A stretch of DNA of 59,670 nt from Escherichia phage CAjan. The stretch lies in the sequence record KP064094, one strand, 5' to 3'. A model generated the notes under the pieces. That model was not told the origin of the DNA, did not search any database, and worked only from the letters and a program-made list of their open reading frames with translations. The position numbers were made by a program, and so were the translations under genes. Shown here in pieces: positions 33,597 through 52,050 of this stretch (within the stretch, counting starts at the first letter, position 1; each line of letters opens with the position of its first letter).

Positions 33597-33801
33597 TTTC
33601 CACACCTTTAATATAACAAGGGTTGATTGTTACATTTGACATTACAATTGGATGATTACGTGCTCCAATTGTACTAACGTGATTAATATCTAATTCTACA
33701 TGCACACCCTGCATAGTAGCATGGGCAATTGCAGAATTAAGTTTTTCTACCAGCTCAGTAATCATTTCCTGATGCTGTTTTGCTTCTTCTAAAGTGATCA
33801 T
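33589..33801 (-). CDS. hypothetical small protein
   Basis: 70 aa; TAATG-coupled to queE. Confidence 0.4.
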   Translation of the reverse strand: MITLEEAKQHQEMITELVEKLNSAIAHATMQGVHVELDINHVSTIGARNHPIVMSNVTINPCYIKGVENE

Positions 33802-34508
33802 TATTCTACCCCAATATATTTGTGAACCTGAAGCTGCAACGTGTAACCGTGTTTCATACAGCTTTGGACAACGGCTTGGATGTTACTGTGGTTAAGATCT
33901 TCATCCTGCTCGTCCATTGGCTGTAAATATATCTTACCCTTGAAACCCTTCGGAGGTCTAGCGATAAATGGCGTAGCTTGATGATCTAATGCCTGAAGCG
34001 GCAAACCATCTTCCACGTTTACACAGCACGCTTTAAGTACATATTTAAATGCATTAGCGCGGCGCAGCACAGAAGGATGAATCTTTGAGGTCTTGGGACT
34101 ACATACAATTACAGGTAACTGGGAAAAGTTCTTAGGTAAAGGCATAGACCCATTAGTTTCAATTTGCACCAAATACCCGCGCGATAACAGTTGTTCAATA
34201 AACGGGTTAATTTGCTGACGGAACGGTTCGCCCCCAGTGATAACCACAAGTGAGGTGCTATTGCCGGATTCCAGCTTACGGCTTTCGATTAAACGCATAA
34301 TATCGACAATGTGATAAAGACTACGACCAACAGTATAATCTGTATCACAGCCAGGGCATTGCAGATTACACCCAGCAAGACGCACAAATACAGCAGGTTG
34401 GCCGCAGAATGGACCTTCACCCTGAATGGTAGAGAATACCGAATGCACGTCTAAATACATATCGTTTTCTTTAGAACGGGACTCGGGAGCTTGTTGATTA
34501 ATATTCAT
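33801..34508 (-). CDS. queE: 7-carboxy-7-deazaguanine synthase (radical SAM)
   Basis: 235 aa with CNLQCPGC (CxxxCxxC radical SAM cluster motif) and QueE-like length; SD AGAGGA. Confidence 0.85.
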   Translation of the reverse strand: MNINQQAPESRSKENDMYLDVHSVFSTIQGEGPFCGQPAVFVRLAGCNLQCPGCDTDYTVGRSLYHIVDIMRLIESRKLESGNSTSLVVITGGEPFRQQINPFIEQLLSRGYLVQIETNGSMPLPKNFSQLPVIVCSPKTSKIHPSVLRRANAFKYVLKACCVNVEDGLPLQALDHQATPFIARPPKGFKGKIYLQPMDEQDEDLNHSNIQAVVQSCMKHGYTLQLQVHKYIGVE

Positions 34509-34553: not shown

Positions 34554-34577
34554 ATTATAACGTGATATGTTTTGATA

Positions 34578-35381
34578 TTACAAGCCGTTCAGGGCTTCCG
34601 GTACTGGCATAGGTACGCGACCAGTCACACCATTAAACTTCTTCCAACGCGCATACTGAGTTTTAACGGTATCTTCGTTCAGACCGTGGCGACCAGCCAG
34701 ATTCAGAACATAAGAGATTGGAGCAGGCTGACCCAGCGTAGCGCTAATCTGATCCATCAGAGCCCAGGCACGACCGCAGGAAGTTTCCGGTTGCGGACGA
34801 CGAACACCATTCTGTTCAGGCATACGGTTCGCTTCTTTCGCTTTTTCACGTTCAGCTTTTTCGCGGGCTTTTTCAGCAGCCTTTTCAGCCTGTTTAGCAG
34901 CGCGGATCTTGTCTTTGAAGCCTTTGATAGACGAATCCAGTTCGTCGACCATGCTCTGAGCAGCAGTTACTGCACCGGACAGATCTTCACCTTTGGATTT
35001 TTTAACAACTGCTTTCAGATCTTTCAGAGCATTCTTTAAATGCTTCAGCTGTTCGGAACCCTTAGATTCTGCTTCCGTAATCTGTTCAACAGTGCTTTCA
35101 TCGGTAATACCGGATAAAGCAAACTTCACGGTTTCAACTGCCTGGGAAAGAGCGGTAAATTTATTTTCAGCTTCAGTACGAATTTCAGCTTGTTTCTTTT
35201 CAGCGGCAGCTTTTTTCTCTGCTTCTTTTTTCTCTTTTGCTACGCGTGCAGCTTCAGCGGCAGCGGCTTTTTTAGCTTCTGCGTCGTTAGCAGTAGCTTC
35301 TTTCTTTGCAGGCTTAGCAGATTTTGCAGCGGCAGCAGCGGCTGCGGCAGCAGCGGCTTTCTTATCTTCAATATTACTCAT
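34578..35381 (-). CDS. Ala/Lys-rich histone H1-like protein with C-terminal HTH-like domain
   Basis: about 267 aa from ATG 35381; AKKA/KAAAE-type low-complexity repeats over about 200 aa, then a globular C-terminal segment (GRAWALMDQISATLGQPAPISYVLNLAGRHGLNEDTVKTQYARW). Confidence 0.5.
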   Translation of the reverse strand: MSNIEDKKAAAAAAAAAAAKSAKPAKKEATANDAEAKKAAAAEAARVAKEKKEAEKKAAAEKKQAEIRTEAENKFTALSQAVETVKFALSGITDESTVEQITEAESKGSEQLKHLKNALKDLKAVVKKSKGEDLSGAVTAAQSMVDELDSSIKGFKDKIRAAKQAEKAAEKAREKAEREKAKEANRMPEQNGVRRPQPETSCGRAWALMDQISATLGQPAPISYVLNLAGRHGLNEDTVKTQYARWKKFNGVTGRVPMPVPEALNGL

Positions 35382-35508
35382 TTTCTTCACTCCGAATTAT
35401 TATGGGTTCGTTTGTTACCAACGGGGTTAAATGTACCAAAGGATTTTGTGACACGCAACCCCTTACATAAACATTTTTAAAAATATTTTTGATCAGGGTT
35501 AGAACTTA

Positions 35509-36003
35509 TTAGCTCTTCGCACCTCTGCCCGGTGTCCATGCTGCTTGCAATGCGGGTTGCTCACAAATGACCCTGGCACCGGAAATAATACCACCCTCCC
35601 GTTCAGCATCGTATTTGACACGGGCAGGTTTCCAAAGTCCTTCATCCATTGACGGTACATATTGCCCAAGTTGAGGCGAGCAAAAGCCCTGGATATCATA
35701 TTCCACACAGAATTCGGCTTGTGCGCTAATTTGGGCGTGATCCAGGAGTGTTTCTGGAAGTTGCGTAAAGTAATCAGACAAAATGCGCTCAACGATTTCC
35801 CGTTCATAAGGTGCAGCTCCTAAATTTTCTGTCAAGTTAATATAAAGCATTTGTAGATCAACATCTTCAAGATCGTGTAAATCGTCTACTGGTGTTACCA
35901 GTGTTGACTCCGGACAACAAATAATTCCAAGTTGGTGTAGTGTCAGCCAATTGGGATGCTTTGCCAAGAGTTCAAATTTATCTGTATCAATTAGGACGTA
36001 CAT
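35509..36003 (-). CDS. hypothetical protein
   Basis: 164-aa acidic ORF with SD AGGGGA. Confidence 0.45.
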   Translation of the reverse strand: MYVLIDTDKFELLAKHPNWLTLHQLGIICCPESTLVTPVDDLHDLEDVDLQMLYINLTENLGAAPYEREIVERILSDYFTQLPETLLDHAQISAQAEFCVEYDIQGFCSPQLGQYVPSMDEGLWKPARVKYDAEREGGIISGARVICEQPALQAAWTPGRGAKS

Positions 36004-36062: not shown

Positions 36063-38039
36063 TTAGAACGGAACGTAATCCGGATCTTCTACTTGTACAG
36101 GGTTAACCACATTGTTTACCGTTATACCTTGCGTATTCTGCGAAACAATATCGTCCCAGCTTACATCATCGTTATAGCTCGGACCTTCTGTTGTTCCATC
36201 CTGCCCGTATACTTTAACCTGAATAGCTTCGTCGTCCTGTGGAGCTTCAAACTTACCGAAACAAGTACCATCATAATCATAGTTCAATATCTCAGGCCAT
36301 TTCTTATTGGTATGAACTTTGATGTATTTTGGTGTTTTAAGCATTGCAGCAACATCAAGGGCTTCTTCAATAGTTTGTGGTAAAGGTAAATGTGTCCTTT
36401 TCTTCCACCATGCCACCGCTTTACGACCCGCCCAGTCCCCATGAAGCAGAGCTACCCATTCACTGAATATTTTACTACCGCAATAATAAGTCACCTTCAT
36501 TGTTGGAGGTTTAGAGCTGTCATTGCGTTTAGTGTGCTTCGCATAAGTAACATGCGTAACTTTAAAGTCTTCAACTACTGGAATATCCTGCTTGATCAGG
36601 GCTTCCGTACTTGCAGCTTTCTTGAGTTTGGTCTGGAACTTAAACTCATGGCCGCAAAAGCCTTCTTTAACGTAATCCGTCCCGCGTAGCCTAAAACCTT
36701 TCAGATATAATTGTTGAACTTGTTCCTGTGTGACGCTGTCCATTGGGATTGGTGCGAAGCCACCGCAATAGCGAGCGGATGCATGATTATACGACCCACA
36801 TACATCGCATTCTTTAACCGGAGCAGTGCCAGCACCTTTTTCGCCCGGGCGCTTGGGTTTAACAGGGTCGTTAATAGGGCCCAAACGGCGCGTATTACCG
36901 CTGAAATCCAGTACAAGGCAGTTCTGCTTGGGGCTTGCCGCAATAGCTTGTAAGCGTCCCTCCTGCGTGGAAAGATCAAAGCCCTCCGCGTACACCGGAC
37001 GCGTACCGCGACCCAGCATCTGAACCCATAGCACCGCCGACGCAGTGGGACGGAGCATGATAATTAAGTCCAGCATTGGATGATCAAAACCTGTGGTTAA
37101 GACGTTGTTGTTCGTTAATGCTCGAAATTCACCGCGCTTGAATTTTTCAATAATCTCGTCACGTTCTTTTGCATCAAGCTTAGAGTGAATACATCCACAG
37201 CTAATACCCATATCGTTCAGCATATCACACGCGTCTTTAGCGTGTTCAATGCCAGAACAAAATATAAGCCAGCTTTGACGGTCTTCACCACATTCAATCG
37301 CTTCCTCAAGTGCGCGGAGTGTTGCGTCATCGCGGTTTACCGCACTTTGCAGCTCACTCTGGATAAACTCACCGCCGCGTTTACCTACCCCGTTGAGGTC
37401 CAGCTCCATCTTAGTACGCTTTGGCACAACCGGAAGAAGATAACCTTGTTCCAGAAACCAGTTGAAGGCTTCCGGAGTAGTTGCATCAAACGTTACCTTA
37501 TCAAATAACGCATCATCGTCTTCGTTTTCCTTAACAATTGAACCATACCCCAGTCGATAAGGTGTAGCAGTAAGACCGATGATTTTTAAGTAAGGGTTAA
37601 CTTCACGCAACGCTGCAAAGAACTTCTTATACATTGTTGCATCACGCGGACTAATAAGATGCGCTTCGTCCACAAAAATAAGATCAACTTTGCCGAACTT
37701 TTTCGGATGCTTAGCAACGGACGCAATCCCTGCAAAGGTAATAAGATTGTAGACTTCTTTACGCTTCAAACCCGCGCTGTAAATACCTGCTGGCGCTTCG
37801 GGCCAGACTTTCATTAATTTATCATAGTTTTGTGCAATTAACTCTTTGACGTGAGTTAACATCATTACGCGCTGGTTTGGATACCATTTGTAAAGCAGAT
37901 CGAGGAACCCCGCGATAACGAGCGATTTTCCTGTCCCTGTTGGTAACAGGATCAAAGGGTTCCCCGCGTTACCCTTTTCAGCATCAAAATAGCGGAATAC
38001 GCTATAAACTGCTTCCTGTTGATAATCGCGGAGTTGCAT
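36063..38039 (-). CDS. superfamily II DNA helicase (DEAH-box)
   Basis: 658 aa; Walker A LLPTGTGKS, Walker B VDEAH, motif III TATP, motif VI QMLGRGTR; C-terminal extension with Cys cluster. Confidence 0.8.
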   Translation of the reverse strand: MQLRDYQQEAVYSVFRYFDAEKGNAGNPLILLPTGTGKSLVIAGFLDLLYKWYPNQRVMMLTHVKELIAQNYDKLMKVWPEAPAGIYSAGLKRKEVYNLITFAGIASVAKHPKKFGKVDLIFVDEAHLISPRDATMYKKFFAALREVNPYLKIIGLTATPYRLGYGSIVKENEDDDALFDKVTFDATTPEAFNWFLEQGYLLPVVPKRTKMELDLNGVGKRGGEFIQSELQSAVNRDDATLRALEEAIECGEDRQSWLIFCSGIEHAKDACDMLNDMGISCGCIHSKLDAKERDEIIEKFKRGEFRALTNNNVLTTGFDHPMLDLIIMLRPTASAVLWVQMLGRGTRPVYAEGFDLSTQEGRLQAIAASPKQNCLVLDFSGNTRRLGPINDPVKPKRPGEKGAGTAPVKECDVCGSYNHASARYCGGFAPIPMDSVTQEQVQQLYLKGFRLRGTDYVKEGFCGHEFKFQTKLKKAASTEALIKQDIPVVEDFKVTHVTYAKHTKRNDSSKPPTMKVTYYCGSKIFSEWVALLHGDWAGRKAVAWWKKRTHLPLPQTIEEALDVAAMLKTPKYIKVHTNKKWPEILNYDYDGTCFGKFEAPQDDEAIQVKVYGQDGTTEGPSYNDDVSWDDIVSQNTQGITVNNVVNPVQVEDPDYVPF

Positions 38040-38040
38040 A

Positions 38041-38949
38041 TCAATCTTTCCCGTAATAATTAGCTACTTGATAGTTTTGACAACCAACTTTCTGCCCTTG
38101 CGTATCCACTGCGGCGGAATGGAAATTGCAATACCATGTTCCATCTTCTTTTGGTTCAAGGAATTGGCATGTGCGGCAGTTTACTTCCGGCATAGTTTTA
38201 CGCCAGCATAGTGAGGAGTGATCGCACCATTTACATTCGAAGAAAGTGGAATCTTTAAATGCGCGGTCCGGAATATCTGTAGCAATAGCAATCTGCACAC
38301 CACGATCAATATACATGTCCGCGGTAACAGGATCAAACGGAATAATTTCTGCGTAAACTTCATCGTCATTCTTGTTTACTGCAAGATATAACGCTGCGCC
38401 AAGACCTAGTTTTCGCATATACACGTTCATCTGTACATAGTGCTCAGGTTTAGCTTCTTTGACACCTTTAGCTTTCAGCTTTTTAAAAGACTTATCGTTA
38501 TGCGTCTTCATTTCGGTGAGCACGGGCATCCCAGGCTGCACGTCCGGACAACCTATAACCACACCATCACAGGAACCGCCAAAGTGTCCGCCAGCTTCGC
38601 TGATACGGAACTGGTGTCCATTTTCGTCCTGCTGATAGACCTGCATACCTGCCGCAAGAAGCATAGCAATGAAACGCGCTTCTTCCAGATGTCCGCGGTT
38701 AAACAGTCGAAGCTGGCGTCCGTCAAACTCTTTGCGTGTAGCCCAGCGATATCCATAGAAAAGCTTGCGTGCGCATTGCTGCCCAATAAGGGAAGCGCCT
38801 AAGTGACTGCGGTTACCGCTTTCAGGGCGATAAGCGTCTTCAATTGTGGGAATGACTACGCCAAGATACTTACGGTAAGTCCCACCCTGATCTTTTTGCA
38901 CACCGTCATTGATCGCTTGAAGTGTTTTTTCTGCAATATAAATAGCCAT
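38041..38949 (-). CDS. PD-(D/E)xK family exonuclease (RecB/Cas4-like with C-terminal Cys cluster)
   Basis: 302 aa; D...EMK core (CDGVVIG...LTEMKTH), YVQMNVY segment and four C-terminal cysteines (CKWCDHSSLC...CRTC). Confidence 0.55.
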   Translation of the reverse strand: MAIYIAEKTLQAINDGVQKDQGGTYRKYLGVVIPTIEDAYRPESGNRSHLGASLIGQQCARKLFYGYRWATRKEFDGRQLRLFNRGHLEEARFIAMLLAAGMQVYQQDENGHQFRISEAGGHFGGSCDGVVIGCPDVQPGMPVLTEMKTHNDKSFKKLKAKGVKEAKPEHYVQMNVYMRKLGLGAALYLAVNKNDDEVYAEIIPFDPVTADMYIDRGVQIAIATDIPDRAFKDSTFFECKWCDHSSLCWRKTMPEVNCRTCQFLEPKEDGTWYCNFHSAAVDTQGQKVGCQNYQVANYYGKD

Positions 38950-50969: not shown

Positions 50970-51452
50970 TTATGCGTCCAGACCGTGGTTGGCGTGAAAT
51001 TTGTAATGCTCTTCCGCTTGTTTACGGGCCTGTTTTGCGTCCTCTATAGTATCATATAAACCTAGATACTTTTTCAATCCGTTTATTTGAATGTAAGCCT
51101 GAAATTTACATGCCTTTTTATTAAAGTAAACTCCTGTTACTCCGGTAGAGTTATTTATTGCCCTGCTAAGATTTTTACTATTATCGCTTGGCAACACTAA
51201 GCGCAAATTCTCTATGCGGTCGTCCCATGTACAATGGTTAATATGGTCTATTTGATGTCCTTCCGGTATCGGGCCTTTATGCAACTCCCATACTAACCTT
51301 GAACGACGATATAGTTTTCCCTTGTATCCTATCAGGATGTATCCGCGCTTATTTGGTACACCAGCTTTACTACCGATAGAAATCTGTTTAGCTGGTTTTA
51401 TTTTCCAAAATAATTCTCCGTTTTGATAGCTGAAGATATTATTTAAGTCCAT
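50970..51452 (-). CDS. HNH homing endonuclease with AP2 DNA-binding domain
   Basis: 160 aa; HNH motif (HQIDHINHCTWDDRIENLRLV) and AP2-like segment (TGVTGVYFNKKACKFQAYIQINGLKKYLGLYDTIEDAKQARKQAEEHY). Confidence 0.7.
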   Translation of the reverse strand: MDLNNIFSYQNGELFWKIKPAKQISIGSKAGVPNKRGYILIGYKGKLYRRSRLVWELHKGPIPEGHQIDHINHCTWDDRIENLRLVLPSDNSKNLSRAINNSTGVTGVYFNKKACKFQAYIQINGLKKYLGLYDTIEDAKQARKQAEEHYKFHANHGLDA

Positions 51453-52050
51453 GATAAGTTCTCCAAGCGTAGAACTGAATGGCGACCGTTGTCCCGTTGT
51501 AAGAAGGCATTGCAGCTTTCATTTCTTTCAGCTCCGGCGTGCGGCCCAGTTCGGCTAAAAGTTTGTCGCCCATTGCCCACACTTCGGCGGTTTTTCCTTT
51601 CAGCGGCTTGCGAGCACCATTTTTGAAATCACAGCGAGCAGCTTTTGCATCCTGTTTTGGCGCGGCAGCTTTTGGCTCTTCAATTTTGATTTCAGAAACC
51701 TGCGTGGCAGCTTTTGCATGTTTCATATCTTTCTCTTCCTCCTGCTCCAGAGCTTCGAGGCAGCTTTTGACGATTTCCGGATTTACCATCGGGCGCAGTA
51801 CCGAGACGCTGGCAGCTGGCGCGGCGGTCGGTGCCGGTACTTTCTGCTCCGGCTGTTGCGCTTTTTTATGGTCGCGCAGTACCTGAAGCACTTCCTTCTC
51901 CACGATGTAAAAACCAATCTCATCCTGATGGATTAACTGCTCGTGTGCATCGCGTGCAACCTGGCCCCAACGGGTCTTCAGGGCGCGGCGTGCATTCGTT
52001 TTCATGGTGTAACGCATTTTGTCCTGTTCGCGGTGAGTTACTTTAGACAT
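51439..52050 (-). CDS. hypothetical protein
   Basis: about 203 aa from ATG 52050 with SD AAGGAG (track start 52095 is GTG). Confidence 0.4.
   Translation of the reverse strand: MSKVTHREQDKMRYTMKTNARRALKTRWGQVARDAHEQLIHQDEIGFYIVEKEVLQVLRDHKKAQQPEQKVPAPTAAPAASVSVLRPMVNPEIVKSCLEALEQEEEKDMKHAKAATQVSEIKIEEPKAAAPKQDAKAARCDFKNGARKPLKGKTAEVWAMGDKLLAELGRTPELKEMKAAMPSYNGTTVAIQFYAWRTYHGLK

Follow-up and report, generated by a model that had tools for sequence, protein, structure and literature searches.

KfrA-type proteins of the IncP-1 and IncU plasmids consist of a globular DNA-binding head joined to a long alpha-helical, alanine-rich coiled-coil tail (PMC7821693, PMC7783346), and act as transcriptional autoregulators (PMC7821693). 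By architecture they are the nearest described proteins to one encoded by Escherichia phage CAjan, an E. coli siphophage of the genus Seuratvirus, subfamily Queuovirinae, whose sequence (record KP064094) was analysed over 59,670 nucleotides, nearly the whole genome and referred to here as the window. The gene concerned (the target gene, encoding the target protein) occupies positions 34578–35381 on the minus strand, and the segment singled out earlier from the letters alone (the sequence-only reading) matches this open reading frame (ORF) exactly. Work on 7-deazaguanine DNA modification takes Queuovirinae and related siphophages as its main model, and the published que/dpdA cluster starts one gene after the target gene. 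We find that the target protein is probably a DNA-binding-like helical protein and not a histone H1-like one, and that it belongs to a large, phage-confined and previously undescribed domain family of generic fold class.

The resemblance to KfrA has several aspects. First, the target protein likewise joins a small helical domain of DNA-binding type to more than 100 residues of alanine-rich charged helix. Secondly, both proteins are encoded by a mobile element beside its maintenance or replication genes. Thirdly, KfrA pairs with the helical KfrC, and the target protein has a likely partner in the product of the gene upstream. However, the order of the two parts is reversed, the target domain being C-terminal and equipped with an N-terminal beta-hairpin, there is no KfrA_N (PF11740) match in the target protein in Pfam at E values up to 1, and the target family is phage-only in the close relatives searched.

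Conservation of the target gene

The target gene is a real, conserved phage gene, as seen from its presence in 33 phage records at 86–99% nucleotide identity, the 234 protein homologs returned by a word-indexed search, and a whole-gene ratio of nonsynonymous to synonymous substitution rates (dN/dS) of 0.15 in comparison with phage VogelGryff. The 804-nt stretch is 99% identical to its counterparts in phages SLUR76, SLUR26 and Skure, and 98.6% identical to that of Seurat. Translation starts at an ATG at position 35381, with a GGAG 9 bases upstream, and the aligned orthologs all begin with MS at this same ATG. No paper discussing the gene was found in the literature, including those describing CAjan, iggy and 9g, and functional-genomics data for Seuratvirus were found neither in the CRISPRi-ART paper nor in the CAjan and iggy papers. 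The gene is an unexplored component of replication and modification biology, preceding queE in every informative locus and having about 1900 sequence clusters in its family, with no Pfam model or solved structure.

The C-terminal domain

A full-length AlphaFold2 model of the target protein, for which 32 orthologs (alignment A2) served as input, has a mean predicted local distance difference test score (pLDDT) of 80 and contains four helices (residues 4–20, 30–90, 98–128 and 132–184, with residues 22–29 at low confidence) followed by a C-terminal domain. The domain is predicted with greater confidence (pLDDT 86–93) as a beta-hairpin at residues 189–194 and three helices at residues 201–216, 222–232 and 236–249, and the same domain is returned by a separate AlphaFold2 model of residues 180–267 built from 83 sequences. 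The models bear out the description, in the sequence-only reading, of a globular C-terminal segment with a helix-turn-helix (HTH)-like pattern. Residues P188, N191, P196, W206, Y243, W246, G254 and R255 are invariant among the 83 sequences, and the consensus of the domain reads MPEQNGVRRPKP-x-CG-x-W-x3-D-x2-S ... GLN-x2-N/T-x3-EYARWRKFNG-x-TGRV. Of 267 domain copies, 98% carry a net positive charge, and the median pI is 9.65.

The predicted C-terminal domain is thus compact, basic and three-helical, with helix-turn-helix geometry in its core, and its fold resembles those of HTH and winged-helix DNA-binding modules, which makes DNA binding plausible. It shares with these modules its small size, its basic character, a core of three helices of which the third is basic and conserved, and a basic arm at the N-terminus; it differs from them in that the hairpin precedes helix 1, there is no C-terminal wing, and it matches no curated family. 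Should the domain bind DNA, it would represent a new family of phage DNA-binding modules, and if it binds protein, it would be a shared docking module.

Searches against known families returned little. At E values up to 1 the domain alone matches nothing in Pfam, 38 homologs give only scattered matches of E 0.05 or weaker, and Pfam domains are found on none of the target homologs listed. Scans of the protein, the domain and the homologs against Pfam, NCBIfam and PHROGs yield only low-complexity or coiled-coil noise and PHROGs of unknown function, and nothing significant emerges from sequence and profile searches of the PDB. Matches there to eS26, to the delta subunit of RNA polymerase (a HARE-HTH protein) and to archaeal RpoA'' (E 0.09–1.6) were treated as chance. 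A Foldseek search against the PDB gives a best E value of 0.6, and a structure search of BFVD returns only uncharacterised members of the same family.

There is some resemblance to the HNH_repeat family (PF18780), which is also a helical unit of about 55–65 residues able to occur in tandem. Among 12 divergent copies of the domain, two have sub-threshold matches to this family (best E 7e-4), and matches are also seen for the homolog P0227 (16.9 bits, E 0.008) and for a paralog encoded in the window (14 bits, E 0.065). However, the listed scores reach at most 17 bits compared to a gathering threshold of 26 bits, the target and 38 close homologs have no match, and no nuclease domain is attached. 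The domain occurs in tandem in six homologs, and the target protein contains a single copy and no nuclease domain. We regard the sequence resemblance to PF18780 as a lead, and not as membership.

A phage-confined family of domains

The trimmed domain alignment (A3), used as the profile in an exhaustive search, recovers 1933 cluster representatives at E values up to 1e-3, and 838 at E values up to 1e-10. In close relatives the family is essentially confined to phage-type contigs; patterns derived from close relatives identify six loci among the genomes of 185,579 species, all of them on contigs of metagenome-assembled genomes, 24–112 kb in length, on which the same phage replication module is also present. 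With P0248 as the query, a scan for close relatives gave no loci.

The domain is re-used in a variety of arrangements. Tandem arrays of two or three copies occur in P0121, P0248, P0122, P0124, P0185 and P0227; the domain stands alone in P0166 (89 aa), and is at the N-terminus of P0217 with a charged helix behind it. In two paralogs, at the loci L169 (9416–10198, plus strand) and L167 (9557–10204, plus strand), it is joined to a Cys4 zinc-ribbon-like segment and one resembling HeH, SAP or Rho_N, with Pfam hints to these segments for L169 only and all sub-threshold. In a distant homolog, that of L163 (IMG/VR contig 3300029989_000165, 9412–10521, plus strand), the domain is preceded by a truly histone H1-like tail, rich in lysine, proline, valine and alanine and lacking acidic residues. 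The homologs P0120 and P0078 start with a hydrophobic stretch, and that of P0120 includes a lipobox-like LMAC, a sign of export if genuine, although a mis-called start may be all that it reflects.

The domain recurs two or three times per genome. The second domain-bearing gene of the window encodes a protein of 203 residues ending in KNGARKPLKGKTAEVWAMGD...QFYAWRTYHGLK; it is detected among the window ORFs by hmmsearch with A3 (E 6e-7) and with A4, an alignment of divergent domain copies (E 5e-12), and by hhalign against A3 (probability 83%, E 1e-5). Its N-terminal part differs from that of the target protein, contains an NARRALK motif, and recurs in P0227 and P0185, which each have two domains. 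Its place is in the early region, adjoining an ORF at 50970–51452 that appears HNH-like by eye. Second paralogs are also represented by L166, L167 and L168, and those of L166 and L167 sit apart from the main copy on the same contigs.

A further arrangement joins the domain to the product of the upstream gene. Seven or more cluster representatives (among them P0111, P0160, P0167, P0188, P0189, P0195 and P0252) are in-frame fusions in which the domain stands behind a homolog of the upstream gene product, and BLASTP of the window upstream ORF against the N-terminal parts of P0111 and P0195 gives E values of 2e-8 and 3e-8. The P0111 fusion is found on nine independent contigs in the same syntenic slot, and the PHROG profile of the upstream gene family itself ends in a domain copy. 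The upstream gene product has no match in Pfam, NCBIfam or the PDB and few word-indexed homologs. Because it is fused to target homologs in other phages, a hint of the Rosetta-stone type, it is probably a functional partner of the target protein.

Genomic context and putative role

The target gene lies in a leftward replication arm in the order Sak4-like ATPase, DUF669, exonuclease, SF2 helicase (36063–38039), a 164-aa ORF (35509–36003), target, queE (33801–34508), queC and further genes to dpdA, clamp and PolB. We compared this with 80 IMG/VR loci containing close relatives of the target gene, 78 of which are informative for the downstream neighbour and two of which end at a contig edge. In all 78 informative loci queE is next, on the same strand and within 73–801 nt; a helicase is upstream in 76 of the 80, and polymerase and clamp genes are downstream in most full-length loci. 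The same gene order is seen in Pseudomonas phage PaMx25, Alteromonas phage R7M, Rhizobium phage RHEph04, a Stenotrophomonas phage, Achromobacter phage vB_Ade_ART and Aminobacter phage Erebus, and queE is downstream in every cultured phage checked.

More distant relatives depart from this pattern. A scan with A4 shows that in L163 the homolog lies in the order Sak4, SSB-like, exonuclease, helicase, target homolog, PolB, and no que or dpdA homolog is present within 20 kb even at E < 0.1. In L169 and L140 queE is not nearby, in L087 a DpdA-like gene follows a three-domain homolog and the preQ0 synthesis genes are absent, and in L088, a short contig, a 91-aa ORF is all that lies between a three-domain homolog and the clamp gene. 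On this evidence the replication module, and not the set of modification genes, is the constant neighbour of the family.

We lean, tentatively and with somewhat less than even confidence, towards an accessory role for the target protein in the replication module: it would be intracellular and not part of the virion, anchored on DNA by its hairpin-plus-three-helix domain and acting with the product of the upstream gene. The C-terminal 80 residues, comprising the N-terminal beta-hairpin arm and three helices, would most likely anchor the protein on DNA, and we infer a contact surface formed by the third helix (TQYARWKKF) and the basic hairpin (NGVRRP). The N-terminal 186 residues, the part that differs between phages, would provide an extended spacer or an arm for oligomerisation or interaction, and the protein would probably work together with the upstream gene product. 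An anchoring role is suggested by the occurrence of the domain singly, in tandem, at either end of proteins, behind a Lys/Pro-rich tail and joined to zinc-ribbon-like and HeH-like segments, as well as by its two copies in this genome, a modularity typical of such modules. The predicted fold and net positive charge of the domain, and the sub-threshold PF18780 matches of divergent copies, point the same way. A replication-associated function is suggested by the helicase upstream in nearly all loci, the retention of the gene in L163, the fusions with the upstream gene, the phage-confined distribution and the possession of its own terminator.

Several observations weigh against this proposal. Curated HTH families are unmatched in library scans of the domain and its homologs, and no candidate binding sites were found. 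Among phages of alpha-, beta- and gamma-proteobacteria the domain is so highly conserved that a conserved protein could also be what it binds, and the fast-evolving centre of the target protein (see below) hints at a variable partner and not a purely architectural role.

An alternative, in line with some GenBank records that read 'transcriptional activator', is that the target protein is a sequence-specific transcription regulator whose domain binds operators at the promoter after the gene, switching on either the unit extending from queE through dpdA and the clamp to the polymerase, or middle or late genes. We consider this unlikely, though worth keeping in view. It is suggested by the queE operon, which comes directly after the gene and on its strand in all informative loci, by the HTH-like fold, and by the autoregulation of transcription by KfrA-type head-plus-helical-tail proteins (PMC7821693). 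Moreover, a terminator-like hairpin and a promoter-like site stand between the target gene and queE; the annotations of phages SA80RD and PaMx25 place a terminator at the corresponding position, and that of SA80RD a promoter. However, no AraC/HTH_18, sigma or other regulator family is matched in Pfam or NCBIfam, and a search for binding sites or iterons around the gene shows nothing beyond repeats driven by codons, the terminator hairpin and a single AT-rich palindrome, with no repeated operator motif. The recognition region is also nearly invariant across hosts and GC content, which would be unusual for a regulator unless its sites were equally conserved, and the two or three paralogs per genome and the tandem copies suit an anchoring module better.

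The label 'transcriptional activator FtrA domain-containing protein' carried by GenBank records of the CAjan lineage was rejected, there being no AraC HTH_18 or DJ-1/PfpI-like match in Pfam or NCBIfam, and it appears to be a low-complexity artefact. The GenBank labels 'plectin 1' and 'outer capsid protein' were likewise rejected as composition-driven and unsupported by profile searches, and the source names 'chromosome segregation ATPase', 'colicin uptake' and 'CheA' as composition-driven. The analysis thus corrects the misleading database labels of FtrA transcriptional activator, plectin and outer capsid protein.

The N-terminal region

The sequence-only reading described about 200 residues of AKKA/KAAAE-type repeats, as in bacterial histone H1-like proteins. 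The alanine- and lysine-rich character is apparent, but low-entropy sequence is limited to residues 2–68 and 158–186 (96 residues in total), and AKKA and KAAAE each occur once and KPAA not at all. Tandem Repeats Finder identifies only micro-arrays of two to three copies of 9–15 nt in the target DNA, caused by GCN and AAR codons. Alanine, lysine and glutamate together account for 78–80% of residues 1–66 and 161–187 (80% for residues 1–66). The first of these segments has 16 Lys+Arg and 11 Asp+Glu (net charge +5), the second has a net charge of +3, and across residues 1–187 the ratio of basic to acidic residues is 1.21 with a single proline. Because they are almost charge-neutral and nearly free of proline, the low-complexity parts look like charged helices and not like H1-like tails. 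Across homologs the composition of residues 2–68 is conserved and their sequence is not.

Linker-histone-type tails are highly cationic and contain proline. The target protein shares with the H1-like proteins AlgP and Hc1 a low-complexity sequence rich in alanine and lysine, but differs in that glutamate neutralises the lysine, there is one proline in 187 residues, and there is neither a repeat array nor a family match; at E values up to 1 Pfam gives no linker-histone or Hc1-type family for the target protein, and none is among the NCBIfam matches. The relatives share this composition. In 255 single-domain homologs the region before the domain contains 28% alanine, 18% lysine, 14% glutamate and 2% proline, and the N-terminal regions longer than 49 residues (237 homologs) have a median of +2.8 charges per 100 aa and 1.2% proline, with one above +15. 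The low-complexity parts also resemble domain II of TolA in their Ala/Lys/Glu composition and predicted continuous helix, although this is a compositional likeness only, and the target protein has neither a membrane anchor nor the TolA C-terminal domain.

A histone H1-like protein that coats the nucleoid or compacts DNA, and is possibly packaged with the genome, is thus highly improbable. Besides the Ala/Lys-rich sequence, it could draw on the promoter-like site and terminator that the gene has of its own, which would suit an abundant product, and on the one distant relative, L163, in which a Lys/Pro/Ala/Val-rich tail without acidic residues precedes the same domain. Against this, the tails are nearly neutral and almost proline-free helices in the target and in 236 of the 237 homologs, AKKA or KPAA repeat arrays and linker-histone or Hc1 matches are absent, some 90 of the residues described as repeats belong to a folded helical region, and virion proteome papers do not report the homologs (see below). 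The H1-like analogy of the sequence-only reading is accordingly not supported.

The folded region, which separates the two low-complexity segments, is confined to the enterobacterial-phage branch and varies between close relatives. Residues 67–160 are 26% hydrophobic, with alanine, lysine and glutamate at 35%, and amino acid changes among Seuratvirus isolates cluster here. In comparison with phage SHIN8, 24 of these 94 residues differ (window 34902–35183) with a dN/dS of 1.6 at a synonymous divergence (dS) of 0.08, while both flanks have 100% protein identity; the ratio above 1 reflects about 30 substitutions. In comparison with VogelGryff the dN/dS is 0.21 for residues 67–160 and 0.02 and 0.00 in the flanking parts. 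The clustering of changes could result from diversifying selection or from mosaic recombination.

These features bear on a further possibility, that the target protein is a protein-protein adaptor or a factor for host takeover or counter-defence. Here the domain would dock on a conserved protein, for example the phage helicase or polymerase, host RNA polymerase, SSB or clamp, and it would fall to the variable central helices to contact a host partner that changes or to escape an immune sensor. The concentration of changes in the centre between identical flanks would fit such a role, as would the extreme conservation of the domain across host classes and the fusion of different N-terminal parts to it in paralogs. 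However, the steady basic charge of the domain and its K/P-rich, zinc-ribbon-like and HeH-like company point to nucleic acid, and recombination could explain an elevated dN/dS derived from so few substitutions. We judge it decidedly unlikely.

Virion proteins and DNA modification

The sequence-only reading proposed nucleoid coating or DNA compaction, with virion proteomics as a check. The Alteromonas phage R7M and phage Vid5 both encode a homolog of the target protein, and in neither case is it named among the proteins found by virion mass spectrometry in the text of the papers (Vid5, PMC6266253; R7M, PMC8265664), these two texts constituting the virion evidence; the 9g paper contains no proteomics. 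A role in the virion or in coating packaged DNA is therefore not favoured.

The sequence-only reading also noted adjoining DNA-modification genes and suggested a link to modified DNA. The adjacency itself is seen in 78 of 78 informative loci, where queE follows; L163 keeps the gene with no que or dpdA detected within 20 kb. A link of the target protein to modified DNA would be drawn from gene order only, with the whole replication module being syntenic.

DpdB-like accessory factors of DpdA are ParB-like ATPases, without which the 7-deazaguanine base is not inserted. Pfam shows neither a ParB nor an ATPase domain in the target protein.

It is nonetheless conceivable that the target protein is a reader of DNA containing dPreQ0, or that it guides or stimulates the DpdA transglycosylase on replicating DNA, although we think this improbable. 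Consistent with it are the presence of queE next to the gene in every informative IMG/VR locus and cultured phage, the DpdA-like gene after the three-domain homolog in L087 where preQ0 synthesis genes are absent, and the published descriptions of the cluster as queE, queC, queD and folE together with dpdA, which leave the target gene unaccounted for (PMC10484667). However, phage 9g DpdA and Gat-QueC on their own bring modification in E. coli plasmids to as much as 18 ± 10% of G, which is close to phage levels, so that a DpdA cofactor is not required (PMC6884629). In addition, L163 retains the gene between helicase and PolB, the L088 homolog is followed by a 91-aa ORF with the clamp directly after, and the second paralog lies far from the que cluster. 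The organism summaries of tblastn searches list Gram-negative phage groups only, and the family appears to be absent from mycobacteriophages and Dp-1; because it is seemingly missing from these other DpdA phage lineages, the association with modification would be phylogenetic.

A more elaborate version, to which we likewise give little weight, combines this idea with the anchoring role. In such modification-aware recruitment the phage-confined DNA-anchoring domain would tether the target protein, the upstream gene product and the early-region paralog to replicating DNA modified with 7-deazaguanines, and the fast-evolving central arm would be engaged in an arms race between host and phage.

Features of the locus

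The coordinates of the features are collected in Table 1.

Table 1. Coordinates within the window of the target gene, its segments and associated features.
Feature	Coordinates	Strand	Basis
Complete coding sequence, target protein	34578..35381	-	ORF list and translation; 267 aa plus stop
Residues 2–68, low-complexity Ala/Lys/Glu-rich helical segment (Ala11 run, then charged helix)	35178..35378	-	low entropy, composition, predicted helices
Residues 69–157, non-repetitive amphipathic helices, probable helical bundle	34911..35177	-	predicted helices, composition, conservation in 32 orthologs
Residues 158–186, second Ala/Lys/Glu/Arg-rich helical linker into the domain	34824..34910	-	low entropy; part of helix 132–184
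Residues 187–267, conserved basic domain with beta-hairpin (MPEQNGVRRP) and three helices; family-defining module	34581..34823	-	
Intrinsic-terminator-like hairpin and T-run right after the stop codon	34530..34553	-	consensus scan: 9-bp stem, 6 GC pairs, then TTTTT
Sigma-70-like promoter match (TTGTAA-18-TATAAT), overlapping the 3' end of the target gene and facing queE	34554..34583	-	consensus scan, 10/12; consensus match only
Upstream 164-aa gene, phrog_7864 (unknown function)	35509..36003	-	PHROG match, BLASTP to fusion proteins
Second domain-bearing gene, domain at C-terminus, 203 aa, phrog_22313	51439..52050	-	hmmsearch, hhalign, PHROG match

We note three minor observations. The AT-rich palindrome mentioned above is imperfect, 44 bp in length (AACCCC…GGGTT), and located between the upstream ORF and the target gene (window 35457–35500); SA80RD carries a terminator annotation for it, though an operator is another possibility. 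The GC skew at the locus merely mirrors the direction of transcription. Finally, SA80RD (L001) contains an HNH endonuclease gene between the exonuclease and helicase genes that is absent here (compare window 38041–38949 and 36063–38039), a presence/absence polymorphism typical of homing endonucleases.

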